Part shown: positions 5,030-36,512 of the stretch, piece by piece | How positions within the stretch are numbered: position 1 is the stretch's first letter | How the letters are laid out: each line of letters begins with the position of its first letter | From: Patescibacteria group bacterium | GTDB taxonomy: Bacteria > Patescibacteriota > Patescibacteriia > SG8-24 | NCBI GenBank assembly: GCA_041667185.1 | Contig: JBAYFM010000003.1 | Coordinates: 16,962-80,961 of the forward strand | Reading direction: 5' to 3' | DNA length: 64,000 bases | Notes under the pieces: model-generated | Told to the model about the DNA's origin: nothing | The model's database searches: none | What the model saw: the letters and a program-made list of their open reading frames with translations, nothing else | Made by a program: the position numbers and the translations under genes

Positions 5030-7156
5030 ATGGCTAAGATCTCCGTTAAGTCGTTTTTTTCCGCCATCCTGGGAGGACTGGCCTCTTTGGTCGTCCCGAA
5101 AACTCCGCGCGGCCGCGTCCGTCAGGCAGTTGTTTTCGTGTTACTGCTCATGGTCGTCGCCGGCAACCTCAGCCACCCCAAGTATTGGGATGACGCCGCT
5201 GATTGGGTGAACGGCAAGACGGGGATGAAGATCCCGCATTTCTGGAACGTGCCTTACCGCCTCGGACTTGATCTGCAGGGCGGCGCCCATCTCGTCTACA
5301 CGGCCGATGTCCGCAATATCGCGGAATCTGAAAAGCCGGACGCGATGTCGGGCGTGCGCGACGTCATCGAGCGCCGCGTGAACGCTTTCGGCATCTCCGA
5401 ACCGGTCGTCCAGACCAATAAGTCCGGCAGCGACTGGCGCGTGACCGTCGATCTGGCCGGCGTCAAGGATATCAGCGAGGCGATCAAACTCATCGGCGAG
5501 ACGCCGATCCTGGAGTTCAAGGAAGAGAACACTGATCCGCCGCGGGCGCTGACCGCCGACGAACAGAAACAGCTCGCTGATTTCAACGCCGCCGTGACCC
5601 TGCGGTCCAGGGAGGTTTTGGCCAAGGCTGTGAAAGCGGGCGCTGACTTCGGCGCGCTCGCCGCTGAATATTCCGATGACGCCGCGACCAAGGACAAAGG
5701 CGGCGATCTCGGTTTCGTCAGCTCCCAGGGCGAGTTCGCCGCCGCGATCGACAAGATCGTGGCCAAGAGACTGAAGCCTGGAGCGGTGCTCGCCGAGACC
5801 GTTAGCGATGACGCCGCCATCCGCATCGTCAAGTACGTCGCCAATCAGGAGGCTGGCAAAGAAGTCCGGGCCCAGCACATCCTGATCAGCTGGCAGGGAG
5901 CCGAGCGCAGCGAACAGACGCGCACCAAAGAGCAGGCTCAGGCGCTCATCGCCAACCTGGCTTCGCGCGCCACGGCCGCCAATTTCGGCAGCCTGGCCAA
6001 GAGCAATTCCGATGACGCCGGCAGCGCCGCTTCGAACGGCGACCTCGGCTGGTTCGGCGCCGGCGCCATGGTCAAGCCTTTCGAGGACGCCGTTTTCGCC
6101 CTGGAAAAGGGCGGTATCTCGGCCGTCGTCGAGAGCCCCTTCGGTTTCCATCTCATCCGCAAGACCGACGAGCGGCCGCTCTACGAGTATCAGCTCGCCC
6201 AGATCCTGTTCACGAAGAAGACCTCGGCCGACATCCTGCCGCCGGCTTCGCCTTGGAAGAACACCGAGCTTTCCGGCAAGGACCTGAAGTCCTCCTCGCT
6301 GCAGTTCAGCCCGCAGACCGGCGAGCCGCAGGTCGGTTTGGAGTTCAATGATAACGGCAAGAAATTGTTCGCGGAGATCACCCAGCGCAACGTCGGCAAG
6401 CCCGTGGCGATCTTCCTCGATAACCAGCCGCTCTCGGTGCCGACGGTCAACGAGCCGATCCTCGATGGCAGCGCGGTCATCACCGGCAAGTTCACGATCC
6501 AGGAGGCTAAGCTGTTGTCCCGCCGCCTGAACGCCGGCGCCCTGCCAGTCCCGATCACTCTCGAAAGCCAGTCCACGGTCGGCGCCTCGCTCGGCAAGGA
6601 TTCGCTCGACAAGAGCCTGTTCGCCGGGATCATCGGCTTCCTGATCATCGCGGCTTTCATGCTGCTGTATTACCGGCTGCCGGGCATCGTCGCCATCGTG
6701 GCGCTGCTGCTCTACACCGGCATCAACCTGGCGCTTTACAAACTCATCCCGGTCACGCTGACGCTCTCGGGCATCGCCGGTTTCATCCTGTCCATCGGCA
6801 TGGCTGTCGACGCCAACGTCCTGATCTTCGAGCGCACGAAAGAAGAGCTGAAACGCGGCCGCACTCTCGGCTCGGCCATCGACGAGGGCTTCAAGCGCGC
6901 CTGGCTGTCCATCCGCGACTCGAACTTCACCACGCTCATCTCCTGCACCATCCTGTTCTACACGAGCTCCAGCCTGATCAAGGGTTTCGCCCTGACGCTC
7001 GGACTCGGCGTCGTCGTGTCCTTGTTCTCCGCCATCACCGTGAGCCGCACCTTGCTGCGCCTGGTCTCCGGTTGGCGCGTATTCCACAATTCCTGGTTCT
7101 ACATGCCGGGCCTCAACCGCGCGCCGGCCGTGTCTAAATCGGACGACGAAGCCTAA
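5030..7156 (+). CDS. secD: Protein translocase subunit SecD with inserted parvulin-type PPIase-like domains
   Basis: N-terminal TM plus P1 base (LDLQGGAHLVY...TPILEFKEE). C-terminal SecD membrane core (GIIGFLIIAAFMLLYYR..., GIAGFILSIGMAVDANVLIFER). An internal segment carries the parvulin signature GDLGWFGAGAMVKPFEDAVFALEKGGISAVVESPFGFHLI and an upstream degenerate copy (GADFGALAAEYSDD...GGDLGFV). Confidence 0.9.
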   Translation: MAKISVKSFFSAILGGLASLVVPKTPRGRVRQAVVFVLLLMVVAGNLSHPKYWDDAADWVNGKTGMKIPHFWNVPYRLGLDLQGGAHLVYTADVRNIAESEKPDAMSGVRDVIERRVNAFGISEPVVQTNKSGSDWRVTVDLAGVKDISEAIKLIGETPILEFKEENTDPPRALTADEQKQLADFNAAVTLRSREVLAKAVKAGADFGALAAEYSDDAATKDKGGDLGFVSSQGEFAAAIDKIVAKRLKPGAVLAETVSDDAAIRIVKYVANQEAGKEVRAQHILISWQGAERSEQTRTKEQAQALIANLASRATAANFGSLAKSNSDDAGSAASNGDLGWFGAGAMVKPFEDAVFALEKGGISAVVESPFGFHLIRKTDERPLYEYQLAQILFTKKTSADILPPASPWKNTELSGKDLKSSSLQFSPQTGEPQVGLEFNDNGKKLFAEITQRNVGKPVAIFLDNQPLSVPTVNEPILDGSAVITGKFTIQEAKLLSRRLNAGALPVPITLESQSTVGASLGKDSLDKSLFAGIIGFLIIAAFMLLYYRLPGIVAIVALLLYTGINLALYKLIPVTLTLSGIAGFILSIGMAVDANVLIFERTKEELKRGRTLGSAIDEGFKRAWLSIRDSNFTTLISCTILFYTSSSLIKGFALTLGLGVVVSLFSAITVSRTLLRLVSGWRVFHNSWFYMPGLNRAPAVSKSDDEA

Positions 7157-7171
7157 CCCGGCGCCACTCCT

Positions 7172-8065
7172 ATGAGATTGCCCATCATCAAATACCGGAA
7201 CGTTTGGTTCACCATTTCCGTCCTGCTCGTCATCGGCAGCATCGCGGCGCTCCTCCTGTTTCCGCTGCGCTACGGCATCGATTTCACCGGTGGTTCCATG
7301 ATGGAAGTGGAGTTCACCGCCCAGATCCCGCAGGTTTCTGCTATCAGCGGCCTGCTGAACGAGGCTGGCTACAAGGATATCGTCATCCAGCCGCTCGGCG
7401 AGAAGGGGATGATCATCCGCCTGCCCGGCGTCGACGAGCCGACTCATCAGCAGATCCTCGTCGCGATGAAAGAGAAGCTGGGAGGCCTCGTGGAGCACCG
7501 GTTCGAGTCGGTCGGTCCGACCGTCGGCAACGAGCTCCGCAAGAACGCCGTCTGGTCGCTCACTCTCGTCCTCCTCGGCATCTGTTCGTACATCGCGTTC
7601 GCTTTCCGCAAGGTCTCGAAGCCGGTGGCTTCCTGGAAATACGGCATCATCACCCTGATTCCGGCCATCTTCCATGATGTGCTCCTGCCGATCGGCGTCT
7701 TCGCCGTCGTCGGCCACTACTTCATGGCCGAGATCAACTCGGCTTTCATCGCCGCCTTGCTGACCATTCTCGGTTTCTCGGTCCATGACACCATCGTCGT
7801 CTTCGACCGGATCCGCGAGAACTTGCTCAAGACGAACGGCACGTTCGAGGAGATCGTCGAGCGTAGCGTCAACGAGACTCTGGCCCGCTCGATCAACACT
7901 TCGCTGACCATTTTCTTCCCGCTCCTGTCCATCTTCCTCTTCGGCGGCGAGACGCTGAAATGGTTCTCGATGGTGCTCATCATCGGCCTCATCGCCGGCA
8001 CCTATTCCTCAGTCTTTCTGTGTGCGCCGCTTCTGGTCGTCATGCAGAAGAAATCGAGCCGCTAG
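7172..8065 (+). CDS. secF: Protein translocase subunit SecF
   Basis: Six-TM SecF architecture directly downstream of secD. FDRIRENL motif typical of SecF. Confidence 0.9.
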   Translation: MRLPIIKYRNVWFTISVLLVIGSIAALLLFPLRYGIDFTGGSMMEVEFTAQIPQVSAISGLLNEAGYKDIVIQPLGEKGMIIRLPGVDEPTHQQILVAMKEKLGGLVEHRFESVGPTVGNELRKNAVWSLTLVLLGICSYIAFAFRKVSKPVASWKYGIITLIPAIFHDVLLPIGVFAVVGHYFMAEINSAFIAALLTILGFSVHDTIVVFDRIRENLLKTNGTFEEIVERSVNETLARSINTSLTIFFPLLSIFLFGGETLKWFSMVLIIGLIAGTYSSVFLCAPLLVVMQKKSSR

Positions 8066-8667: not shown

Positions 8668-10086
8668 ATGCCCACGATAACCATTAATTTCGATTATTTC
8701 CTTCAGCTGGGAAGCCTGCCTTTGCCGCTCATGTTAGCGCGTCTTTTTTTGGACGGCGGCTGGATCTTCATTCTCGTCATTTTCGTCCAGTTCGGCTGGA
8801 TCATGTGGGTGCAGTCGCGTCAGGTCAAGTTCAACAAAGGCGTCAGATACATCCTGCTCGCGATCGACGTGCCGAAAGAGAACGAGCAGACGCCGAAGGC
8901 CGTCGAACAGATCTTCAGCCAGCTCGCCGGCGCCTATTCCGGAGCGGACAATTATGAGAAGTACTGGATCGGCAAGACCCAGTCCGTCTTCAGTTTCGAG
9001 CTGGTGTCGGTCGATGGTTACGTCCAATTCCTCGTGCATACTCCGGCCAAGTTCCGCGACCTGATCGAAGCGGCCGTCTACGCGCAGTATCCTGACGCCG
9101 AGATCATCGAGGTCGAGGATTACGCTGATAAAGTGCCGCTCAAATATCCGGATGACGAATGGGATTGTTGGGGCACGGAGTTCGCCCTGAAGAAGCCGGC
9201 GGCTTTTCCGATCCGGACGCACCTGCAGTTCGAGCACAATCTTTCGGAAGAATATTTCAAGGATCCGCTCGGTCCGATGCTTGAGATCTTCAGCTCGATG
9301 AAAAAAGGCGAGCAGTTGTGGCTGCAGTACATCATCATGCCCTGCGATGATTCCTGGAAGGATGCGAGCGCGGCCATCGCCGATAAGATCCTTGGCCGGA
9401 AAAAACCGGCGCCGAAGACGCTCGCCGATGATCTGGTCGCCTGGCCGCTCGCGGTCGTGAACGAGGTTGCTGGTTTGGGCGGTTCAGCGCCGTCGGAAAA
9501 GAAGGACGCTACGCCGAAGATGCTGCAGCTTTCGCCCGGCGAAAGGAACGTTCTCGAGACCATCCAGCTCAAAGCGGCGAAACATGGTTTTCTGACCAAG
9601 ATCCGCATGGTTTATGTGGCCAAGAAAACGATCGCCAACCGCGGCAAGGTCGTCTCGCCCATGAAAGGCGCTTTCGGCCAATTCGCGGCGCTGGATTCTA
9701 ATGCCATCAAGGTCTACGGCAAGGTCGCGCCGAAAGGGGATTACTTCTGGGAGAAATGGAGCGTGCCAGAGAAGACCAACAACATCATCCGCAACTACAA
9801 GAATCGCAGCGGTCGCGGCGGCAATTTCTTCGTGCTGAACGTCGAGGAGCTGGCGACTCTTTATCATTTCCCGTACAAGACCGTGAAGGCGCCGCTCATC
9901 AAGCGCACTGAGGCGAAGCGCGCCGAGCCGCCGTCGCATCTGCCGACGGCCGACATCGATGCAATCAGGCCTTTCAAGCGCAAGAAAGCGGCTCCGCCGC
10001 CGTCGCATTTGCCGGCCCCGCCGCCGGAACCTGAGGACGCCGAGGGCGACGCCGGCGACGACGGCGATGACTTGCTCAAGATCTGA
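8668..10086 (+). CDS. Membrane-anchored hypothetical protein (2 N-terminal TM helices plus ~400-aa soluble domain and a Pro-rich C-terminus), first gene of a 5-gene operon
   Basis: N-terminus LPLPLMLARLFLDGGWIFILVIFVQFGWIMWV is hydrophobic. The remainder is soluble with a PPSHLP x2 Pro-rich end. A 5-nt gap separates it from the next gene. Confidence 0.6.
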   Translation: MPTITINFDYFLQLGSLPLPLMLARLFLDGGWIFILVIFVQFGWIMWVQSRQVKFNKGVRYILLAIDVPKENEQTPKAVEQIFSQLAGAYSGADNYEKYWIGKTQSVFSFELVSVDGYVQFLVHTPAKFRDLIEAAVYAQYPDAEIIEVEDYADKVPLKYPDDEWDCWGTEFALKKPAAFPIRTHLQFEHNLSEEYFKDPLGPMLEIFSSMKKGEQLWLQYIIMPCDDSWKDASAAIADKILGRKKPAPKTLADDLVAWPLAVVNEVAGLGGSAPSEKKDATPKMLQLSPGERNVLETIQLKAAKHGFLTKIRMVYVAKKTIANRGKVVSPMKGAFGQFAALDSNAIKVYGKVAPKGDYFWEKWSVPEKTNNIIRNYKNRSGRGGNFFVLNVEELATLYHFPYKTVKAPLIKRTEAKRAEPPSHLPTADIDAIRPFKRKKAAPPPSHLPAPPPEPEDAEGDAGDDGDDLLKI

Positions 10087-10091
10087 CGCCT

Positions 10092-12503
10092 ATGCCGGAA
10101 CTCACGCCCTACGATCACGATCATGAGAACGAAGTCTCGCTTTTCGCGGAGACCAACTATCGGAATAACCGGACCAAGTTCGGCATCAAGACCGATGACC
10201 GCCGCCGGCATGTTTACGTCATCGGTAAGACCGGCATGGGCAAGACCACGCTGCTCGAGAATTTCGTCCTGAACGACATCTACGCCGGGCATGGTCTCGC
10301 TTACGTCGATCCGCACGGCGACACCGCCCAGAAACTGCTGGACTACATTCCCTCGAACCGCATCAACGACGTGGTGTATTTCAATCCGGGGGATATGGAT
10401 TTTCCCATCGGGTTCAACATTCTCGAGACCGTCGACCCGAGCAAGAAACACCTGGTCGCCGCCGGGCTCATGGGTGTCTTCAAGAAGATCTGGCCCGACG
10501 TCTGGTCGGCCCGTATGGAGTACATCCTGCTCAACACCATCCTCGCGCTTCTCGACGCGCCGGGTTCGACATTGCTCGGCATCAACCGCCTGCTCGTGGA
10601 CGAGGATTATCGCAAGCGCGTCGTCTCGCTCTGTCAGGACCCGGTCGTGAAGACTTTCTGGGTCAAGGAGTTCGCCGCTTTTTCGGAGAAGTACCGCACC
10701 GAGGCTATCGCGCCGGTCCAGAACAAGGTCGGCCAGTTCCTGTCCGCGTCCATCATCCGCAATATCGTCGCTCAGGTGAAATCGACCATCGATGTCCGCG
10801 AGATCATGGACAAGCGTAAGATCTTCATCCTGAATCTGGCCAAGGGCCTCATCGGCGAGGAAAACTCGCGGCTCTTGGGCGGTATGATCGTGACGCGGTT
10901 GCAGCTCGCGGCCATGGAGCGCGTGGATATGCCGGAGAAAGAGCGGCAGGATTTCTACCTCTACGTCGACGAGTTCCAGAATTTCGCCACGACTTCGTTC
11001 GCGAACATTTTGTCCGAGGCGCGCAAGTACCGCCTGAACCTGATCGTCGCCCACCAGTACATCGAACAGCTCGAGGAGGAGGTCCGTGACGCCATCTTCG
11101 GCAACGTCGGCACCATCATCAGTTTCCGGGTCGGCGCCGCCGACGCCCAGTTCATGGAGACCGAGTTCACGCCGCGATTCACACCGGAGGACCTGGTCAA
11201 TCTCGGCAAGTACGATACGTATCTGAAGCTCATGATCGACGGCGCATCCTCCGAGCCTTTCTCGGCGACGACCTTGCCGCCGATCGCTCAACGGACTGGT
11301 TCGGCGGAAAAAGTGATCAAGGTCTCGCGTGAACGGAACGCGCGTCCGCGAGCCGATATCGAGAGCAAGGTTTTGCGCTGGAGCGGTATGGGGACGTCCG
11401 ACGAGGGTGCCGTGATCGATGTTGAGGATGATGATGAGGCTTTGGCTTCCGAAGAAAAGCTCAAGGAATTACAGGCCACGTCGCCCAAGATCGCGGGATT
11501 GGTCGTGCCGGACAAGAAACCGAAGAAGATGTTCGAGATCGCGTGCTCAGTCTGCGGCAAGATCCAGCAATTATCGTTCGAACCCGACTGGTCGCGGCCG
11601 TGGTTTTGCAAGGAAGATCTGGAGAAGCGGAAATTGTCCGGTGAAGGCGATCGTCCAGCCGCATCCGCAACTCCCGTTGCTGTTGCAGCTCCACGACCGC
11701 CAGCCGTCCAACCGCCGAAGATAATCGTGGTTCCGCCGCGCCCGCCGGTTGCCGCCAAACCATTGCAAGCGGCTCCACCGCCCAAGAAGATCGAGCCGCA
11801 GGCTGCCGCCCCAGCCGCTCCGAGCGTTTCGTTAGCGGCATTGCTGGGCAAAGATTTGACGGCTAAAGAAGAAATGGAGGTCATTGAAGAAGTTGATGAT
11901 GAGGACGCCGGCGACGGAACCGGATCGCCGAAGATCGTCGAAAAGATCGTCGAGACGCCGCTCGCCTCCGCGACTCCGGGAGGCGTCGGTCTGGTGAGCG
12001 TCAGCGCCAAATCGGTCGATCGTCCGAAACCGCGCGCCGTCGCCACGCCAGTTGCGCCCAGACCGGCAGCGAAGCCGGCTCCGATCGCCCCCAATTCTAC
12101 CCGCTCGGCTGCGCCCAGACCGGCCGCTCCGAATCGCGAGAAGAATAAACCGAATCGTCCGCGCATCGTCATGTCTGATCCGAAGCGCCAGTTCGCGGCT
12201 CCGAAAGCGAATATTCAGGTCAATCCGCGCGAGCCTGAACGCCATTCGGATAAGTCGGCGGCTGATGTCGTCAAGCCATCTGTTTCGGTTCAGCCAGTCG
12301 TCGAACAGAAGAAACCCCAATCGATTATCCGACCGCCGGCCGCGGCGAGCAGCGAATCGAAGATCGGTGCCGCGCCGCAAGCACCGGCTCCGATCCAGCC
12401 AGCCGCGCCGACAACTCCTAAACCGGCTGTGCCGCCGCCGGCCGTGAAATCCGATTCCGACGGCCAGCCGATGCGTCCTGGGGAAGTAATTAAATTTTCA
12501 TGA
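10092..12503 (+). CDS. VirD4/TraG/TraD-like (type IV coupling protein family, AAA_10-like) P-loop ATPase with a long disordered Pro/Ala-rich C-terminal tail
   Basis: Walker A VIGKTGMGKTT. Walker B-like FYLYVDEFQNF (the D-E-F is typical of the TraG/VirD4 family). No TM helix of its own. Residues ~420-803 are low-complexity (PAAS/PKKIEPQAAAPAAP...), with a CSVCGK...WFC Cys cluster embedded in them. Confidence 0.7.
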   Translation: MPELTPYDHDHENEVSLFAETNYRNNRTKFGIKTDDRRRHVYVIGKTGMGKTTLLENFVLNDIYAGHGLAYVDPHGDTAQKLLDYIPSNRINDVVYFNPGDMDFPIGFNILETVDPSKKHLVAAGLMGVFKKIWPDVWSARMEYILLNTILALLDAPGSTLLGINRLLVDEDYRKRVVSLCQDPVVKTFWVKEFAAFSEKYRTEAIAPVQNKVGQFLSASIIRNIVAQVKSTIDVREIMDKRKIFILNLAKGLIGEENSRLLGGMIVTRLQLAAMERVDMPEKERQDFYLYVDEFQNFATTSFANILSEARKYRLNLIVAHQYIEQLEEEVRDAIFGNVGTIISFRVGAADAQFMETEFTPRFTPEDLVNLGKYDTYLKLMIDGASSEPFSATTLPPIAQRTGSAEKVIKVSRERNARPRADIESKVLRWSGMGTSDEGAVIDVEDDDEALASEEKLKELQATSPKIAGLVVPDKKPKKMFEIACSVCGKIQQLSFEPDWSRPWFCKEDLEKRKLSGEGDRPAASATPVAVAAPRPPAVQPPKIIVVPPRPPVAAKPLQAAPPPKKIEPQAAAPAAPSVSLAALLGKDLTAKEEMEVIEEVDDEDAGDGTGSPKIVEKIVETPLASATPGGVGLVSVSAKSVDRPKPRAVATPVAPRPAAKPAPIAPNSTRSAAPRPAAPNREKNKPNRPRIVMSDPKRQFAAPKANIQVNPREPERHSDKSAADVVKPSVSVQPVVEQKKPQSIIRPPAAASSESKIGAAPQAPAPIQPAAPTTPKPAVPPPAVKSDSDGQPMRPGEVIKFS

Positions 12504-18980: not shown

Positions 18981-20864
18981 ATGACCGCCAACGAGATCCG
19001 CGAAAAATATCTGGATTTCTTCCGCCAGCGCGGCCATGCCGTGATTCCGTCCGCGTCGCTCATCCCGGAGAATGATCCGACAGTGCTCTTCACGACCGCC
19101 GGCATGCACCCGCTCGTCCCGTATCTTTTGGGCGAACCGCACCCCATGGGCAAACGCCTCACGGACGCGCAGAAGTGCATCCGCACCGGCGACATCGACG
19201 AAGTGGGGGATAATCGCCATCTGACCTTCTTCGAGATGCTCGGCAACTGGTCCTTAGGCGACTATTTCAAGAAAGAAGCCATTGCCTGGAGCTTCGAGTT
19301 CCTGACGGGTTCGGACTGGCTCAAGCTTGATCCGCAGCGTCTTTACGTCAGTTTTTTCGAAGGCGACGCCGTGGCGCCGCGCGACGACGAGTCGGCGGAG
19401 ATCTGGTGCCAGCAATTCGCCACGGCCGGCATCGACGCCAGGATCGGCGAGCGCATTTTTGCCTATCCCAAAGCCAAGAATTGGTGGGGTCCGGCCGGTC
19501 AGACCGGTCCGTGCGGTCCGGACACCGAGATGTTCTACGACACGCTGAACCTCGCCGATCCCAAGGAGCACGCGCTGGGCTGGGCTAGCAAAGAACCCTG
19601 CCACCCGAACTGCGACTGCGGCCGCTACGTCGAGATCTGGAACGATGTCTTCATGCAGTTCAACAAGAATGCGGAGGGTAAATTCGAGCCGCTCGCGAAA
19701 CCGAATGTCGATACCGGCATGGGCCTGGAGCGCACGACGATGATCCTGCAGAGCGTGCCGACGGTCTTCGATACGGAAATGTTCCAGCCGTTGTTCGCCG
19801 AGATCGAGTCCCGTTGCGGTAAGAAGTACGGCAGTGACGCCGAAACCACGCGCATGATGCGCATCATCGCCGACCACGCCAAAGCCGCGACCTTCATCAT
19901 CGGCGACCCGCGCGGCGTCGGTCCCTCGAACGTCGACCAGGGCTACATCGTGCGTCGGCTCATCCGCCGCGCCGTGCGTTTCGGCCGCAGTCTCGGCATC
20001 GAGGGATACTTCGTGACCGATCTCGCTCGCAAGGTCATCGAGTTGTACGCCGGGGCCTATTCCGAACTGGCGACGAATTCCGACCGCGTCATTCAGGAGC
20101 TTTCCGCCGAGGAGGAGAAGTTCAGCCACACGCTTCAGCGCGGCGCCGAAGAAGTGACTAGATTGATGGTCAGGCACAACCTCAAGAATATGGGGTCTCC
20201 CGGCGTTCAGTCGACTTCGATTACCGGTAAAGAAGCGTTTTATTTGTACGAATCATTCGGTTTCCCGAAAGAGATCACTGAAGAGATCATCGGCGATAAG
20301 ATCGATCAGAACGAATGGGACGCTGAGATGAAGAAACATCAGGACCTCTCTCGCGCCGGCGCCGAACAGAAATTCTCCGGCGGCCTCGCGGACCACTCCG
20401 AGGATGTCGTTCGGCTGCATACCGCGACCCACATGCTGCACGCCGCGCTCCGCCAGGTGCTCGGCGATCATGTCGAGCAGCGCGGTTCGAACATCACCGC
20501 CGAACGTCTGCGTTTCGATTTTTCGCACCCGCAGAAGCTGACGCCCGACGAATTGAAAAAAGTTGAAGCGATCGTCAACGAGAAGATCGCCGCCGACCTG
20601 CCGGTGACGTTCGCCATGATGACGGTCGATGAAGCCAAAGCCGCGGGTTCGATCGGCCTCTTCGAAGACAAATATTCCAAGCTCGGCAACAAAGTGAAAG
20701 TCTACACCGTCGGCGACGATGCCCATGGCGTCTATTCGCGCGAGATCTGCGGCGGCCCGCACGCCGAGCGCACGAGCCAGCTCGTCTCTTTCAAGATCCT
20801 CAAAGAAGAAGCTTCTTCGGCCGGCATCCGCCGCATCAAAGCCGTCGTCGGCCAAGCCGCTTGA
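18981..20864 (+). CDS. alaS: Alanine--tRNA ligase, short form (catalytic plus editing domains, no C-Ala domain)
   Basis: N-terminus MTANEIREKYLDFFRQRGHAVIPSASLIPENDPTVLFTTAGM. Editing-domain HTATHMLHAAL and CGGPH motifs. 627 aa versus ~870 aa typical. Confidence 0.85.
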   Translation: MTANEIREKYLDFFRQRGHAVIPSASLIPENDPTVLFTTAGMHPLVPYLLGEPHPMGKRLTDAQKCIRTGDIDEVGDNRHLTFFEMLGNWSLGDYFKKEAIAWSFEFLTGSDWLKLDPQRLYVSFFEGDAVAPRDDESAEIWCQQFATAGIDARIGERIFAYPKAKNWWGPAGQTGPCGPDTEMFYDTLNLADPKEHALGWASKEPCHPNCDCGRYVEIWNDVFMQFNKNAEGKFEPLAKPNVDTGMGLERTTMILQSVPTVFDTEMFQPLFAEIESRCGKKYGSDAETTRMMRIIADHAKAATFIIGDPRGVGPSNVDQGYIVRRLIRRAVRFGRSLGIEGYFVTDLARKVIELYAGAYSELATNSDRVIQELSAEEEKFSHTLQRGAEEVTRLMVRHNLKNMGSPGVQSTSITGKEAFYLYESFGFPKEITEEIIGDKIDQNEWDAEMKKHQDLSRAGAEQKFSGGLADHSEDVVRLHTATHMLHAALRQVLGDHVEQRGSNITAERLRFDFSHPQKLTPDELKKVEAIVNEKIAADLPVTFAMMTVDEAKAAGSIGLFEDKYSKLGNKVKVYTVGDDAHGVYSREICGGPHAERTSQLVSFKILKEEASSAGIRRIKAVVGQAA

Positions 20865-30700: not shown

Positions 30701-32167
30701 ATGGCTGAGGGGCGTGTTGCAAAAAATACGGCCTATTTGTTATCTGCTTCCGTCGGGCAGAAGATCTTGGCGTTCATCTATTTCACCATCGTCGCGCGCT
30801 CGGTCGGCGTCGAGGGGACCGGCCGCTATTTCGTCGCCGTCTCCTTCACCACCATCTTTTCGATCTTCGTCGATCTCGGCCTCGCCAACGTCCTCGTCCG
30901 CGAGGTCGCCAAGGTTCCGGAGAACGCCCAGAAACTCCTCGCCAACGTCCTCGGCCTCAAGGCTGTCCTGGGCGTGCTCACGGTCGCGGCGGTCCTCCTG
31001 GTCTCGCGGCTCATCGGCTATCCGGCCGAGACCCGGCTCCTCATCACCGTCGCCGCCGGCGTCATGGTGCTCGACTCGATCCACCTCGTGCTCTACGCGG
31101 TCATGCGCGGCTTCCAGAACCTGCGCTACGAGGCCATCGGCGTCGTGACCGGCCAAGCCGTGATCATCACGACCGGCATCGTCTTCGTCCTACTGAAACT
31201 GCCGCTCGTGTCGCTCGTCATCGCCCTCCTCTGTGGCAGCATCTGGAACGTGGCTTGGGCCGCCTGGATCCTCAACCGGCAGTTCGGCGTGAAGCCGATC
31301 CTGCGCTTCGACGAGGCGGTCATCAGATTCTTCGGGCAGGTCGCTTTGCCTTTTGCGTTCGCCGGCATCTTCTCGCGCGTCTACTCCTACATCGATTCCG
31401 TGATGCTCTCACGCCTCGTTTCCGAGGAAGCGGTCGGCTACTATTCGGTCGGCTACAAGCTCACGTTCGCTTTCCAATTCCTGCCCATGGCTTTCGCCGC
31501 CGCGATCTATCCGGCCATGAGCGAATATTACGTCAAAGATCGCGCCAAACTGGCCGCTGTTTTCATGACCGCCATCAAATATCTGCTGCTCGTGGTCGTG
31601 CCGCTCACGGTCGGTACGTTCGTGCTTGCCGGCCCCATCATCCACCTGGTCTACGGTCCGGCCTATGACAAATCGGTCCTGCCGCTCCAGATCCTCATCT
31701 TCTCGCTCGTCTTCGCTTTCCTGTACTGGCCCTGCGGCTCGCTGCTCAACGCTTGCGACCGCCAGTCCCAGAACACGACGGTCATGGGCGTGACCATGAT
31801 CGGCAACATTATCCTGAACGTCTTCCTGATCCCGCGGTTCGAGGCCGTGGGCGCCGCCTGGTCGGCCCTCATCGGCAACGCCGCCCTCTTCGGCCTGGCG
31901 TTCTATTTCGCCTCGCGCGTCGTGGTCATCGATAAGCAGCGGCTCCTCTCCATCATCGGCCGGATCGCCATCGCCGGCGCCGCCATGGGGATCATCGTCG
32001 AGTTGCTCGATGGCGCGGCGTCCTTGGCGTTCATGGTGCCACTCGGCGCCCTGGTCTACGCCGCCCTGGTCTTCCAGCTCCGCATCATCACCTGGACCGA
32101 AGCGAAGAACATCATGAATCTTTTCCTGCGCCGGGGCAGGGGAGGGGTGTCCGACATCGTCTCATGA
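30701..32167 (+). CDS. Polysaccharide biosynthesis protein / Wzx-like oligosaccharide flippase (MOP superfamily)
   Basis: 12-14 TM protein. The N-terminus KNTAYLLSASVGQKILAFIYFTIVARSVG is typical of the PF01943-like family. Confidence 0.75.
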   Translation: MAEGRVAKNTAYLLSASVGQKILAFIYFTIVARSVGVEGTGRYFVAVSFTTIFSIFVDLGLANVLVREVAKVPENAQKLLANVLGLKAVLGVLTVAAVLLVSRLIGYPAETRLLITVAAGVMVLDSIHLVLYAVMRGFQNLRYEAIGVVTGQAVIITTGIVFVLLKLPLVSLVIALLCGSIWNVAWAAWILNRQFGVKPILRFDEAVIRFFGQVALPFAFAGIFSRVYSYIDSVMLSRLVSEEAVGYYSVGYKLTFAFQFLPMAFAAAIYPAMSEYYVKDRAKLAAVFMTAIKYLLLVVVPLTVGTFVLAGPIIHLVYGPAYDKSVLPLQILIFSLVFAFLYWPCGSLLNACDRQSQNTTVMGVTMIGNIILNVFLIPRFEAVGAAWSALIGNAALFGLAFYFASRVVVIDKQRLLSIIGRIAIAGAAMGIIVELLDGAASLAFMVPLGALVYAALVFQLRIITWTEAKNIMNLFLRRGRGGVSDIVS

Positions 32168-33330
32168 AGCCGCTTCTTTTCGTCACTCTGGAATATCCGC
32201 CGCAGATCGGCGGCATTGCGGTCTATCTGTCGCGGCTCGTGGAGAGTCTGCCGGCCGGTCGGACGCAGGTCATGGCGGACGTTTGTCCCAAGACGCACGA
32301 GACCGATATGCGATGCCAGGCTCCGATCTATCGCCGTCAGCTGTTGCCGGGCTGGATTCGGCCGCGCTGGCTCGGCGCTCTTTATTGGACCGACTGGTTC
32401 TGCCGTAAAGAAGGCCGGCCGGAAGCCATCATCGTGAGCCATCTGCTGCCCATGGGACTCGTCGCCGATCTGATGCGGCGTTTTCGGCGCGTCCCGTACG
32501 CGGTCATCATCCACGGCATGGACGCCGCTTTAGCGCTCGCCGCCCGCGGCTCCAAACGCCGCTCCGCGAGCCGTGTCGTCGCTAATGCCGCGCTCGTGGT
32601 CGCGAACAGCTCGTACACAGCCCGACTTGCCGAGACTTTGGGCGCGGCCAAAAGCAGGATTACCATCGTCCATCCGTGCCCGCAATTCCAGCCCCAGACC
32701 GACGTCGTCGAGTCCCGAGTCGCCGCAATCCGCGTCAAATACGGCTTGAGCAAGGATTTCACCCTGATCTCGGTCGGGCGGCTGGTGAAACGCAAAGGTT
32801 TTGATACGGCAATCAAGGCGGTCGCTGAGCTGAAGCGGTCCGGCCGGCAGGTGCGGTTGGTGATCGTCGGCGACGGTCCGGAAAAACCGACGTTGCAGGC
32901 CTTGAGCGTCGAGCTCGACGCGGCCGACCGGGTGGTCTTCACTGGCATCGTGAGCGACGAGGAACTCGCCGAGCTCTATGCCGCCGCCCACGCTTTCATG
33001 CTGCTGCCGCGAAGCCTCGGGCCGGACATCGAGGGGTTCGGCATCGTCTATCTGGAAGCCAACTTGTTCGGCTTGCCGGCGATCGCGTCCAGGACGGCCG
33101 GCGTGCCTGACGCTGTGCTCGACGGCGAGACTGGCCTGCTCGTGGAGCCTGACGACCATTCCGGAGCCGCTTACGCCGTCGGCCGGCTGATGGACGATCC
33201 CGGACTGCGCCGGCGTCTGGGCGACCGCGGCCGGGCGCGCGTGCGCGAGGAATTCACCTGGGAAAAACAGGCGGCCAAATTTACTCGGGCTCTGGAAACG
33301 GCCCTCGGGACGGCTGACGTTAAACAATGA
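32164..33330 (+). CDS. Glycosyltransferase family 4 (GT-B)
   Basis: EGFGIVYLEANLFGLPAIASRTAGVPDAVLDGETGLLVEP (E-x7-E motif region). Confidence 0.85.
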   Translation: MKPLLFVTLEYPPQIGGIAVYLSRLVESLPAGRTQVMADVCPKTHETDMRCQAPIYRRQLLPGWIRPRWLGALYWTDWFCRKEGRPEAIIVSHLLPMGLVADLMRRFRRVPYAVIIHGMDAALALAARGSKRRSASRVVANAALVVANSSYTARLAETLGAAKSRITIVHPCPQFQPQTDVVESRVAAIRVKYGLSKDFTLISVGRLVKRKGFDTAIKAVAELKRSGRQVRLVIVGDGPEKPTLQALSVELDAADRVVFTGIVSDEELAELYAAAHAFMLLPRSLGPDIEGFGIVYLEANLFGLPAIASRTAGVPDAVLDGETGLLVEPDDHSGAAYAVGRLMDDPGLRRRLGDRGRARVREEFTWEKQAAKFTRALETALGTADVKQ

Positions 33331-33334
33331 TCCT

Positions 33335-34063
33335 ATGACCGAGCTGAAACCGAATACAGCGCGTCCGACCGTCAGTATCGTGATCCCGTCCTATCAGCAC
33401 GGCGGCGAGATCGCCGAGTGCCTGCGGAGCATTCTTGATCAGACATTCAAGGATCACGAGATCATCGTCGTGAACGACGGTTCGACGGACAACACTCTGG
33501 AGGAGCTACGGCCGTTTCTCGACCGGATCCAGCTCATCAATCAGGAGAACCGCGGCGGCAACGCGGCGCGGAATCGCGGCTTCGACGCGTCGGTCGGCGA
33601 CTTCGTGCTGTTCTGCGACGCGGACATCGTCATGCGGCCGGACATGCTCGAAACAATGCTCCGGACCTTGCGCGCGAATCCCGGCGCTTCCTACGTCTAC
33701 TCGTCGTTCCGTTTCGGCTGGAAGGTCTTCCGGCTCTGGTCGTTCGACGCCGCCAAACTGCGGCAGATGAATTACATTCACACGACCTCGCTCTTGCGCC
33801 GCGGACATTTTCCGCGTTTCGACGAGAAGATCCGGCGGCTGCAGGACTGGGATCTGTGGCTCACCATGCTCGAACAGGGCCATGTCGGCGTCTGGATTCC
33901 GGAGATCCTGTTCAAGGCCATCCCGCACCAGGGCGGCATCAGCACCTGGGTGCCGGGTATTTTTTATCGCATACCTTGGCGGAAATTCGGCATCCGCATC
34001 GCGACCGTGGAGAAGTTCCTGGAAGCCGAGCGCATCATGCGGGCCAAACATAAGCTGCCGTAG
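33335..34063 (+). CDS. Glycosyltransferase family 2
   Basis: VSIVIPSYQHGGEIAECLRSILDQTFKDHEIIVVNDGSTDNT. DAD motif. Confidence 0.8.
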   Translation: MTELKPNTARPTVSIVIPSYQHGGEIAECLRSILDQTFKDHEIIVVNDGSTDNTLEELRPFLDRIQLINQENRGGNAARNRGFDASVGDFVLFCDADIVMRPDMLETMLRTLRANPGASYVYSSFRFGWKVFRLWSFDAAKLRQMNYIHTTSLLRRGHFPRFDEKIRRLQDWDLWLTMLEQGHVGVWIPEILFKAIPHQGGISTWVPGIFYRIPWRKFGIRIATVEKFLEAERIMRAKHKLP

Positions 34064-34065
34064 TT

Positions 34066-34923
34066 ATGGATCTGAGCATCGTCATCGTGAACTGGAAGGT
34101 CCGCGATCTGCTCGAGAAGTGCCTGGCTTCGGTTTACCTGGAGACTTCCGGGATCGAGTTCGAGGTCCTGATCGTGGACAACGATTCGCGCGACGGCTCG
34201 GTCGAGATGGTCGCGAAAAAGTTTCCGCAGGCGGATCTCATCGCCAGCAACCGCAATCTCGGTTTCGCGGCCGCCAATAACGAGGCGATCGCCCGCAGCC
34301 GCGGCGAGTTCATCCTGCTTCTGAATCCCGACACGGAGATCCGGGACGGCGCGCTCCAGAAGCTGGTCACCTTCATGCGGCGCGAGCGGCAGGCGGCCAT
34401 CTGCGGCCCAAAACTCGTGAACGCCGACGGCTCGCTTCAGCCTTCGGTCCGGCATTTCCCGACGCTCGGGGTCCAGGCGGCAATCACTTTGAAATTACAT
34501 CGGCTGTGGCCTGGGCTGCCGGGCGTGAAGCGTTATCTGGCCGCGGATTTTGATTATTCCCGGGCGTCGGCCTGCGATCAGGTGATGGGCGCGGCTTTGA
34601 TGTTCCGCCGGTCGCTGCTCGAGGACATCGGTCCGCTCGACGCCGGTTATTTCATCTGGTTCGAGGAAGTGGATTTCTGCAAGACGGCGGCCGAGAGAGG
34701 TCATCAGACCTGGTATACGCCCGAAGCGTCCGTGCTGCATCACGGCGGCGAGAGTTTCGGTCAGCTGCTGGCGCCGCGCAAGCAGCGGATCTTCAACGCG
34801 AGCGGCCGCCGCTATTTCCTGAAACACCACGGGCGTCCGGCTTGGCTGGTCCTGCTCCTGCTGCATCCGCTCTCCATGCTGCTGGCCGTCGCCGGAGCGC
34901 GCGTTGCCGCCAAAAAGTTATGA
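34066..34923 (+). CDS. Glycosyltransferase family 2
   Basis: LSIVIVNWKVRDLLEKCL...VDNDSRDGS...NLGFAAANN. Confidence 0.8.
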   Translation: MDLSIVIVNWKVRDLLEKCLASVYLETSGIEFEVLIVDNDSRDGSVEMVAKKFPQADLIASNRNLGFAAANNEAIARSRGEFILLLNPDTEIRDGALQKLVTFMRRERQAAICGPKLVNADGSLQPSVRHFPTLGVQAAITLKLHRLWPGLPGVKRYLAADFDYSRASACDQVMGAALMFRRSLLEDIGPLDAGYFIWFEEVDFCKTAAERGHQTWYTPEASVLHHGGESFGQLLAPRKQRIFNASGRRYFLKHHGRPAWLVLLLLHPLSMLLAVAGARVAAKKL

Positions 34924-36512
34924 ACGAACGCCTGACCGTCATCCGTCAGACTTTCCGTGCCGCGGTCCCGCTCCTGGTCCTCGCGGAGATCCTGTCGTTC
35001 TGCGGCCTGCTTTTGCCGCCGTTCGCGGACAGCGGTTTCTTCATCATCATCGGTCTCGTCGCTGTCCTGGCCCTGCTGCGCCCAGGCCTGGCTTTCCTGA
35101 TCCTGCTCGCGGAACTATTCATCGGTTCGCAGGGCGGTTATCTTTTTTCGTTCGGCGCCGGTTCCGGGCTGTACGTTTCCTTGCGCATCGGGTTGTTTCT
35201 GGTCGTGTTCGGCGCCTGGCTGGCGCGGACCGTGGCGACGCTCGTGCGGCGGCGCGGCGACCTGAAGTCCCTGGAATGGCTTACGGATATGCGCCGAGCG
35301 GGCTTATTTTGGCCTTATCTCGCGCTTTTAGCCGTCTTCGCGGCGAGCGCCGTGAACGGCATCTTGCGCGGCAATCAGTTCGATGACGTCTTTTTCGATG
35401 CCAACGGTTACGCCTATTTCGCGCTGTTCCCGCTCTTCATCGAGCAGCTGCGCGACCGCGAACTGCCGGCGCGGATCGCGGGTCTCCTGGCGGCGGCCGT
35501 GACGACTTCGATCATCAAAGCCCTGGCGGTGCTGTATTTCTTTTCGCACCGGATCTTTGTCGTCGCTTCGCCGCTCTACACCTGGGTCCGCGACACGCGC
35601 GTGGGCGAGATCACCATCATGACGGGGGACTTCTACCGGATATTTTTCCAGTCGTTCGTCTTTTCGCTCGCGGCGATCTTCGGCCTCCTGCTCTTCGCGG
35701 CGGCGGCCGGCAAAGAGAAAGACAGCGGCCGAACCGAATCCCTGATCCTGGGGGTTTTCGCGGCGACCGGGCTCGTGATGAGTCTGTCGCGCAGTTTTTG
35801 GTTCGGCGGTTTCGTCGCGGTCATCGCGCTGGCCATCCTCCTGGCGCGGCTGCGGCTGCCGACGGCTTTCTGGAAACGCCTTGCGCTGATCTCGGCCGGG
35901 ACCGCGATCGCCGCCGTCGCGCTCATCGTCGCGGTCTACTCGATCCCGTTCCCGCGCAAGGGCGCGGACGTGGCCTGGGCGTCGTTCCTCGGCGGCCGTG
36001 CCTTCTCCGTGAGCGGCGAAGCCGCGGCGAACAGCCGCTGGGTGCTGCTGCCGGAACTCATGAAAGCCGGCCTGCGCCATCCGTTCGCGGGTTCGGGCTT
36101 CGGCACGACCGTCACTTATACGACCAGCGATCCGCGCCTGCTCTCGACCAATCCGACCGGCGCTTACACGACGTTCGCTTTCGAGTGGGGTTACCACGAT
36201 CTCTGGATCAAGTTCGGCCTCTTGGGGCTCGCGGTCTACGGCTGGTGGCTCTGGCGGATCATGCGCTTGCTCGCCGCGCCGCTCGACCGGACGGTCCAGG
36301 AAGCGGTGCCGGATGAAGTGCAACAAAAAACGGCCCTGCTGGCCGTCGCGCTGCTCACTGCCATGGCCGCCATCCTCGCGACCAACGTCTTCAGCCCGTA
36401 TCTGAATCATCCTCTGGGCATCGGCATCCTGATGCTGCTCGCGGGTTTCGGAGCGCAAAATTCCCAGAAGTCCATTTCCGCGGACGCGGAAATCCGGCCG
36501 GAGATCCTCTAG
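34920..36512 (+). CDS. O-antigen ligase / Wzy-like polymerase family membrane protein
   Basis: Start at MNERLTVIRQ (overlaps the preceding stop). ~12 TM segments with a large loop. ORF track opens earlier at 34842. Confidence 0.55.
   Translation: MNERLTVIRQTFRAAVPLLVLAEILSFCGLLLPPFADSGFFIIIGLVAVLALLRPGLAFLILLAELFIGSQGGYLFSFGAGSGLYVSLRIGLFLVVFGAWLARTVATLVRRRGDLKSLEWLTDMRRAGLFWPYLALLAVFAASAVNGILRGNQFDDVFFDANGYAYFALFPLFIEQLRDRELPARIAGLLAAAVTTSIIKALAVLYFFSHRIFVVASPLYTWVRDTRVGEITIMTGDFYRIFFQSFVFSLAAIFGLLLFAAAAGKEKDSGRTESLILGVFAATGLVMSLSRSFWFGGFVAVIALAILLARLRLPTAFWKRLALISAGTAIAAVALIVAVYSIPFPRKGADVAWASFLGGRAFSVSGEAAANSRWVLLPELMKAGLRHPFAGSGFGTTVTYTTSDPRLLSTNPTGAYTTFAFEWGYHDLWIKFGLLGLAVYGWWLWRIMRLLAAPLDRTVQEAVPDEVQQKTALLAVALLTAMAAILATNVFSPYLNHPLGIGILMLLAGFGAQNSQKSISADAEIRPEIL

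Follow-up and report, generated by a model that had tools for sequence, protein, structure and literature searches.

In the closest described systems, the SecDF export motor and parvulin-type folding helpers are non-covalent partners. As summarized in PMC9987972 from Tsukazaki (2011) and Furukawa (2017), unfolded preprotein is bound by the head of the SecDF P1 domain, and proton flow makes this head swing from one to the other of its two forms, F and I. SurA binds the holotranslocon, and AlphaFold consistently docks the P1 and P2 parvulin domains of SurA on the SecDF P1 head (PMC9987972). PpiD-YfgM is stationed at SecYEG (PMC9643414). The PrsA-like Mdp lipoproteins of Mycoplasma pneumoniae crosslink to SecD and, constitutively bound to SecDF-SecYEG, form a folding chamber that includes SecDF-SecYEG-SecA (bioRxiv 10.1101/2025.04.25.650208, 10.1101/2024.09.05.611430). 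Here, we describe a secD gene whose product carries a parvulin module within its own chain. The gene was found on contig JBAYFM010000003.1 of a Patescibacteria group bacterium (assembly GCA_041667185.1), in a stretch of 64,000 nucleotides that is referred to below as the window. By analogy with the free foldases, we consider it likely that this SecD, with its nested parvulin module, serves as a built-in PrsA/SurA-like foldase or chaperone for the chains handled by the P1 head.

By every defining feature testable from sequence, the protein is a genuine housekeeping SecD of the SecDF proton-driven export motor, from a Patescibacteria bacterium of Uhrbacteria/Parcubacteria type. The open reading frame (ORF; 5030-7156, plus strand, ATG start) was taken from the ORF list and encodes 708 amino acids with an extracytoplasmic parvulin insert. 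It scored 382.1 bits with TIGR01129, the NCBIfam secD model, for which the curated equivalog-domain cutoff is 244.4. All parts of secD described below are on the same strand. Along the protein, Pfam placed SecD_1st (residues 108-167), two stretches of Rotamase_3/Rotamase, SecDF_P1_head (residues 410-507), and SecD_SecF_C (residues 511-679), in that order. The first transmembrane helix, TM1 (5117-5173, residues ~30-48), corresponds to an AlphaFold helix at residues 26-48 and is preceded by the basic stretch KTPRGRVRQ. Since the N-terminus before TM1 is basic, the positive-inside rule gives an N-in topology, with everything up to TM2 being extracellular. The N-terminal part of the P1 base (5255-5527, residues 76-166), recognized by SecD_1st and by alignment to Thermus thermophilus SecDF, ends in the hinge strand ILEFKE. 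The P1 head is retained (6254-6550, residues 409-507; Pfam SecDF_P1_head, E = 2.6e-29, model positions 17-114 of 114), and it is followed by the five-helix membrane core, TM2-TM6 (6596-7069, residues ~523-680; Pfam SecD_SecF_C and AlphaFold helices).

Residue D594 (6809-6811) aligns with D340 of T. thermophilus SecDF, within avDanvl here and avDgnvl there, and this counterpart of the proton-path aspartate was invariant in 95 of 95 aligned family sequences. The secF gene (7172-8065, plus strand, 297 amino acids) starts 15 nucleotides after secD. Its product scored 274.8 bits with TIGR00966, compared to a cutoff of 160, and showed the Pfam domains Sec_GG and SecD_SecF_C. In all 19 complete related loci, secF directly followed the insert-bearing secD. 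TM1, the P1 base and head, the five-helix core, the TM4 aspartate, and a separate adjacent SecF are all features of the canonical SecD/SecDF proteins of T. thermophilus (3AQP, 5YHF) and Deinococcus (5XAN, 5XAP). The start codon giving 708 residues was backed by a conserved N-terminus (TPRGRVR plus TM1) in the 95-sequence alignment and by an independent gene call. One JGI gene call (P0001) is 668 amino acids long and begins 40 codons later, at M41; this start would cut into TM1.

The departure from canonical SecD is at the base-to-head junction of P1. In an alignment with the PDB sequence, residues 33-117 of T. thermophilus SecDF matched residues 76-165 of the 708-residue SecD, and residues 159-443 matched residues 413-696. 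Between these aligned blocks there are ~41 residues in T. thermophilus SecDF and ~247 in the protein studied here, so that the extra sequence, which holds two parvulin folds, comes to ~230 residues. The whole insert with its linkers occupies 5528-6253 (residues 167-408). When residues 176-395 were excised in silico, the remaining P1 became a single collinear match to TIGR01129 (model positions 1-250), and the match of the P1 head to its hidden Markov model (HMM) stayed the same, at positions 17-114 of 114. Because excision restored collinearity and left the head match unaltered, the module is a clean insertion between the hinge strand ILEFKE and the head. It adds to the P1 head and does not substitute for it. 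A first-pass annotation of this DNA had placed the insert between the P1 base (TPILEFKEE, residues 158-166) and the membrane core, and had raised the question of whether it replaces or decorates the head. The insert does follow the base, but the head lies between it and the membrane core, and the module decorates the head. Replacement of the head was ruled out, since the head HMM is complete and the SecD model is collinear once the insert is removed.

The same annotation had read a parvulin signature, AQHILISW...FGFHLI, in the extracytoplasmic region of SecD. This signature is present at residues 281-376, and the profile check proposed along with it gave a Rotamase_3 match of 141 bits (E = 2.9e-41) compared to a Pfam cutoff of 22.5. 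In the scan of the full protein, the best Rotamase_3 stretch spanned residues 265-381. The signature belongs to a complete parvulin peptidyl-prolyl isomerase (PPIase) domain, the inner of two, at 5861-6175 (residues 278-382), which was delimited by Rotamase_3, by Foldseek matches to Pin1, and by residue conservation. Scanned alone, it scored 103.9 bits with Rotamase_3 (E = 1e-29) and 88.3 bits with Rotamase, over positions 1-96 of the 97 in the latter model. Foldseek superposed it on the PPIase domain of Pin1 with a root-mean-square deviation (rmsd) of 1.8-2.1 Å over 111 columns, 40% identity, and a template modeling score (TM-score) of 0.83-0.85. The Pin1 match 9ino_B gave an rmsd of 1.8 Å and a TM-score of 0.83. 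The parvulin domains of PrsA and SurA (P2) superposed at 2-3 Å. The inner domain, therefore, combines a full-model HMM match, the predicted four-strand/four-helix fold, and the intact catalytic and proline-pocket set H283, S327, D329, L339, M347, F351, S369, and H374.

To compare this set with Pin1, residues were mapped by eye on alignments, and conservation was counted in 149 sequences of the family. H59 of Pin1 corresponds to H283 (histidine in 148/149), C113 to D329 (aspartate or glutamate in 146/149), L122 to L339 (leucine in 148/149), and M130 to M347 (methionine in 137/149). F134 corresponds to F351 and H157 to H374, both kept in 149/149, and T152 corresponds to S369, where threonine or serine was found in every sequence (149/149). 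The active site of the inner parvulin is under purifying selection. Across the protein, the mean frequency of the majority residue was 0.76-0.78 in the SecD parts, 0.66 in the inner domain, and 0.50 in the outer domain.

A further feature of the inner parvulin in this family is a cysteine pair in the motif HILICWxGAxRC. Both cysteines were present in 89 of 95 family members, and the two sites formed the second-strongest covarying pair in the family, which suggests, from sequence, that the pair forms a disulfide. In the 708-residue SecD, these sites are S287 (5888-5890) and S294 (5909-5911). Both serines are encoded by AGC, one base from TGC. Two relatives that are 89-90% identical, P0002 and P0003, have cysteines at both sites; the paired loss is, therefore, recent.

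The outer domain proved to be less conventional. The first-pass annotation had proposed a degenerate second copy upstream of the signature. Such a copy is present (GADFGALAAEYSDDAATKDKGGDLGFV, residues 204-230), but it is not one half of a simple tandem. Its main part (5555-5845, residues 176-272) contains helices α1-α3, strand β2, helix α4, and strands β3 and β4, without the N-terminal β1, and was modeled by AlphaFold with a pLDDT (predicted local distance difference test score) above 90. When residues 172-274 were scanned alone, Rotamase_3 gave 43.8 bits (E = 4.5e-11, cutoff 22.5) over model positions 41-111 of 116, with the first strand missing. A displaced β1 was identified on the other side of the inner domain, at 6182-6214 (residues 385-395), where the family consensus YRLSHILI resembles a parvulin β1. 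The outer domain was recognized by its HMM score, but it lacks both the canonical β1-first order and the catalytic histidine pair. The positions of this pair are R265 and Q391 here; the two histidines are kept in ~30% of the family, and S215 and D217 are kept in most members.

Structure prediction and covariation both support the conclusion that the outer parvulin is circularly permuted, with the complete inner parvulin nested between its β4 and the displaced β1. The AlphaFold model of the full-length protein had a pLDDT of 88-95 over residues 170-400, and the model of the insert alone had a mean pLDDT of 94.8 and a predicted TM-score (pTM) of 0.76. Both models contained two continuous 24-residue strands, at residues 263-286 and 372-395. 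Covariation was calculated as mutual information with average product correction (MI-APC) on 149 family members, equal to ~100 effective sequences. The strongest pair was 265-391. Among 95 sequences, these positions combined as H/H in 30 and as N/R in 27, a co-occurrence that is the behavior expected of two catalytic histidines on neighboring strands, β4 and β1. An antiparallel register could be read from the pairs 273-386, 271-388, 263-393, 267-389, 270-388, and 262-393, and the ladder extended into the inner domain through 280-379 and 278-382. Other pairs tied the strand at residues 385-395 to the rest of the outer domain, namely 226-388 and 229-386 (to β2), 240-389 (to α4), and 189-394 (to α1). 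Judging from the models and the covariation, a single two-stranded ribbon passes through both parvulin domains.

The permutation was also examined by moving the strand in front of the outer domain. For the homologue P0025, the Rotamase match then reached over model positions 1-96 and gained 6.4 bits. The same re-permutation of the 708-residue SecD, which has no histidine in this strand, did not raise the score. A simple tandem of two parvulins was ruled out by the AlphaFold strands, the covariation ladder, the co-occurrence at positions 265 and 391, and the re-permutation of P0025. Because the module is permuted, its two ends would meet at the position of the canonical β1-α1 loop, which would let it fit into a loop of SecD.

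More than 140 homologues share the SecD-parvulin architecture. Among the matches listed, 120 of 120 homologues had the same set of Pfam domains; these were 55-100% identical to the 708-residue SecD and came from JGI, ENA, NCBI, and Logan, on contigs of up to 1.5 Mb. An independent Logan contig carried a gene call for the identical 708 residues. When one genome per GTDB species was scanned, 20 loci matched the entire insert, each with the N-terminal part of SecD, the insert, and the C-terminal part of SecD, and with a guanine-cytosine (GC) content of 33-65%. In the 149 homologues, the insert segment was 226-269 residues long, with a median of 243. The related loci carried the labels Candidatus Uhrbacteria, Magasanikbacteria, and Falkowbacteria, as well as the Parcubacteria and Patescibacteria groups; Falkowbacteria is a candidate phylum inside the Parcubacteria group in the NCBI taxonomy.

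Given that the architecture extends across the homologues and 20 species representatives with a constant insert length, we judged the fusion to be real and ancient. It could instead be that the fusion is an artefact, with a frameshift, a chimera in the assembly, or a faulty gene call merging secD with a separate ppiC gene. This has next to no probability, since the parvulins are in the middle of the ORF, flanked on either side by SecD sequence in the same frame, and since the identical protein was recovered from independent assemblies and the same architecture from over 140 sequences and from 20 genomes that represent GTDB species. Nothing was found in support of such an artefact, and the shorter start of P0001 leaves the insert unaffected. 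Because of its position inside SecD and its conservation across independent assemblies, the insert was not taken for an artefact.

In Candidatus Magasanikbacteria RIFOXYC2_FULL_42_28 (locus L004, 5437-8526), the insert-bearing SecD and SecF form one fused chain of 1030 residues, and the 1015-residue homologue P0242 resembles it. As L004 encodes a single-chain SecDF, the parvulin module is found in both the split and the fused formats of SecDF. Seven contigs with a Patescibacteria-type fused secD (L001, L011-L013, and L016-L018) come from metagenome-assembled genomes labeled "uncultured Gammaproteobacteria" or "Candidatus Binatia", which looks like taxonomic mis-assignment or bin contamination.

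Among known proteins, the best two-domain match to the insert was SurA of Escherichia coli (PDB 1M5Y), with 236 columns, 28% identity, and a phmmer E of 8e-23. Like the module, SurA pairs an inactive parvulin (P1) with an active one (P2). In contrast to the module, SurA occurs free in the periplasm, has a core chaperone domain (N/C), and carries its parvulins in simple tandem, while the module is nested, permuted, covalently attached, and without a core domain. The NCBIfam SurA model NF008038 gave 76 bits compared to a cutoff of 394, and only the P1-P2 part (SurA residues 200-386) was aligned. PrsA, a lipoprotein of Firmicutes (4WO7, 6VJ4, 5HTF), is likewise a membrane-tethered extracytoplasmic parvulin foldase of monoderms that acts on Sec substrates, and its parvulin matched at 2.5-3 Å, but PrsA has a lipobox, an NC chaperone domain, one parvulin, and a gene of its own. 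Over the parvulin part only, the PrsA models NF002827 (cutoff 343) and NF002846 (cutoff 361) scored 82 and 81 bits, and the flanks of the insert are SecD. PpiD-YfgM of E. coli (8ZHT), which was also matched by Foldseek, resembles the module in being a membrane-anchored parvulin chaperone at the translocon exit; it differs in its own transmembrane anchor, its inactive parvulin, and its non-covalent binding to SecY. The PpiD model NF008054 gave 58.1 bits compared to a cutoff of 493. Membership in the PrsA, SurA, and PpiD families was ruled out by these scores below the curated cutoffs and by the missing chaperone domains. The closest parallel in organization is the M. pneumoniae "dome" of Mdp444/436/489 with SecDF-SecYEG-SecA, in which PrsA-like foldases are permanently coupled to SecDF in a genome-reduced wall-less/monoderm host. 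The dome differs in being non-covalent and in using large, trimeric, chamber-forming lipoproteins, compared to a compact two-parvulin module fused into SecD.

By analogy with these proteins, the SecD module probably works like PrsA, SurA, and PpiD. From the residues kept in each domain, we infer that the inner domain is an active, non-phospho-specific parvulin standing on an inactive parvulin pedestal, similar to the division between P2 and P1 of SurA. A different possibility is that the module is only a holdase or docking surface, which would bind emerging unfolded chains and enlarge the binding surface of the P1 head, with prolyl isomerization being irrelevant. The SurA-like pairing would suit this possibility, as the P1 domain of SurA is inactive and the PPIase activity of SurA is dispensable. 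In addition, the outer domain lacks the histidine pair in ~70% of the family, including the 708-residue SecD, yet it is always kept. A mere binding surface, however, would not need the pattern seen in the inner domain, where H283 (148/149), H374 (149/149), and the acidic residue at 329 (146/149) are retained together with L339, M347, and F351. The inner domain was also better conserved than the outer (0.66 vs 0.50). We, therefore, consider the holdase-only possibility unlikely and favor a foldase with a catalytic inner domain.

For such a foldase, the following mechanism can be proposed. The P1 head would catch the unfolded chain at the SecYEG exit and swing under proton flow, and the attached parvulin module would then bind the chain held by the head. 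The inner domain would catalyze prolyl cis-trans isomerization. The outer domain would serve as a pedestal, possibly with a peptide-binding (holdase) surface, as in the inactive P1 of SurA. The module would then do in cis what PrsA in Firmicutes, SurA and PpiD in E. coli, and the Mdp "dome" lipoproteins in M. pneumoniae do in trans. Patescibacteria are regarded as lacking an outer membrane, and, for this reason, the module would be best described as a cis-encoded equivalent of PrsA. The PPIase activity, the hand-over of substrate, and the replacement of a free foldase by the SecD module are what we infer from these comparisons. A search of the 64-kb window, and of ~295 kb in total surrounding 20 related secD loci, turned up no second, free parvulin gene; confined to these stretches, it had little power.

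Several observations weigh against this proposal. PPIase activity is dispensable or absent in SurA, PpiD, and, in part, PrsA, and conservation of the active site is, thus, no proof of isomerization being the selected function. A pTM of 0.47 for the full-length AlphaFold model makes any placement of the module with respect to the P1 head, or to the exit of SecY, tentative. Sites in the insert covaried weakly, and possibly for phylogenetic reasons, with the remainder of P1; with ~100 effective sequences, covariation in general can be inflated by shared ancestry.

The position and the covariation of the module also bear on a structural or regulatory role, in which the module, instead of working on substrates, would gate or limit the swing of the P1 head, or would provide SecDF with a tether to SecYEG/YidC, to the cell wall, or to the S-layer. 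The module is exactly at the base-head hinge, and the catalytic loop of the inner domain (residues 329 and 332) covaried weakly with the base strand at residues 510-516. This covariation is also compatible with clade markers, and a near-invariant parvulin active site is not expected of a structural spacer. Literature searches yielded no known SecDF regulator of this kind. A structural or regulatory role is, thus, very unlikely compared to the built-in foldase.

The spacing of the strands offers a hint about the origin of the module. The distance from β4 to the next β1 is 18 residues at the first junction (265 to 283) and 17 at the second (374 to 391), compared to 15 in the canonical tandem parvulin P0121. 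Since these spacings resemble those of canonical tandem parvulins, the module could be a segment cut from a tandem of three parvulins, running from just after β1 of the first repeat to β1 of the third. Lipoproteins of ~370 residues with three canonical tandem parvulins (P0121, P0123, and L082:1982-3082) were numerous among the best matches to the insert profile, and they could be candidates for the source type of this array. When the profile was searched against 1.84 billion representatives, ~20 of the top 150 matches were embedded in SecD, and the others were mostly unrelated three-parvulin lipoproteins and PpiD-like proteins with canonical tandems. No nested module outside SecD was evident in this search, which was not an exhaustive census.

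These ideas can be combined into a broader scheme, in which SecDF would be an energy-coupled foldase outside the membrane: the proton-driven swing of the P1 head would carry the module back and forth from the SecY exit to a position of release, so that the proton motive force would pace capture, isomerization, and release where there is no ATP. In this scheme, the module would have taken the place of every free extracytoplasmic PPIase in the clade, and its nested, permuted fold would be an arrangement new to description, plausibly captured in one step from a triple tandem. Taken jointly, these propositions are unlikely to hold.

Public databases annotate the homologues plainly as "protein translocase subunit SecD". 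The architecture is already in the databases, as the Rotamase domains are visible in precomputed Pfam matches. Full-text literature searches, which left most subscription journals outside their coverage and, hence, do not amount to proof, found no description of a SecD-parvulin fusion or of a circularly permuted parvulin. We, therefore, rate the components and the non-covalent partnership of SecDF with parvulins as known, and the covalent form and the nested, permuted domain arrangement as new.

The fusion means that a folding helper that is separate in other bacteria is part of the export machine in a bacterium of the candidate phyla radiation. How folding helpers take over the chains exiting Sec, with no ATP on the outer side of the membrane, is an actively studied question, and the evidence for contact between SecDF and parvulins, from SurA and the Mycoplasma dome, has so far consisted of low-resolution electron microscopy, crosslinks, and AlphaFold predictions. 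A natural fusion of SecD P1 with parvulins across several candidate phyla is independent "Rosetta-stone" evidence for a functional partnership, and it provides a compact single-polypeptide system in which this partnership can be tested. The fusion overturns nothing, and it bears on the hand-over from SecDF to chaperones. It also adds to the picture of small-genome Patescibacteria economizing through merged functions. The nested parvulin, in turn, is a clean natural case of circular permutation making a two-domain module insertable in a host loop.

An ORF of 881 codons on the minus strand (5141-7786) overlaps both secD and secF. Its third-position GC content was 0.59, compared to 0.7-0.9 in most other long ORFs. 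Because of this low value and the overlap with two well-supported genes, it is almost certainly spurious, of a type common in high-GC DNA. Directly downstream of secDF on the plus strand is a gene for a DUF8128 protein of 472 residues with an N-terminal transmembrane segment (8668-10086). It is followed by a gene for an 803-residue VirD4/TraG/TrwB-like coupling ATPase with a treble-clef zinc finger (10092-12503, plus strand). This pair may be related to type IV secretion or DNA uptake. Further along the window, the alanyl-tRNA synthetase (18981-20864, plus strand) has 627 residues, comprising the catalytic core and the second additional domain, compared to the ~875 usual in bacteria, which suggests that the C-terminal region is missing. 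A surface polysaccharide cluster (30701-36512, plus strand) encodes a Wzx/MurJ-like flippase, one GT4 and two GT2 glycosyltransferases, and a Wzy/O-antigen-ligase-like protein.

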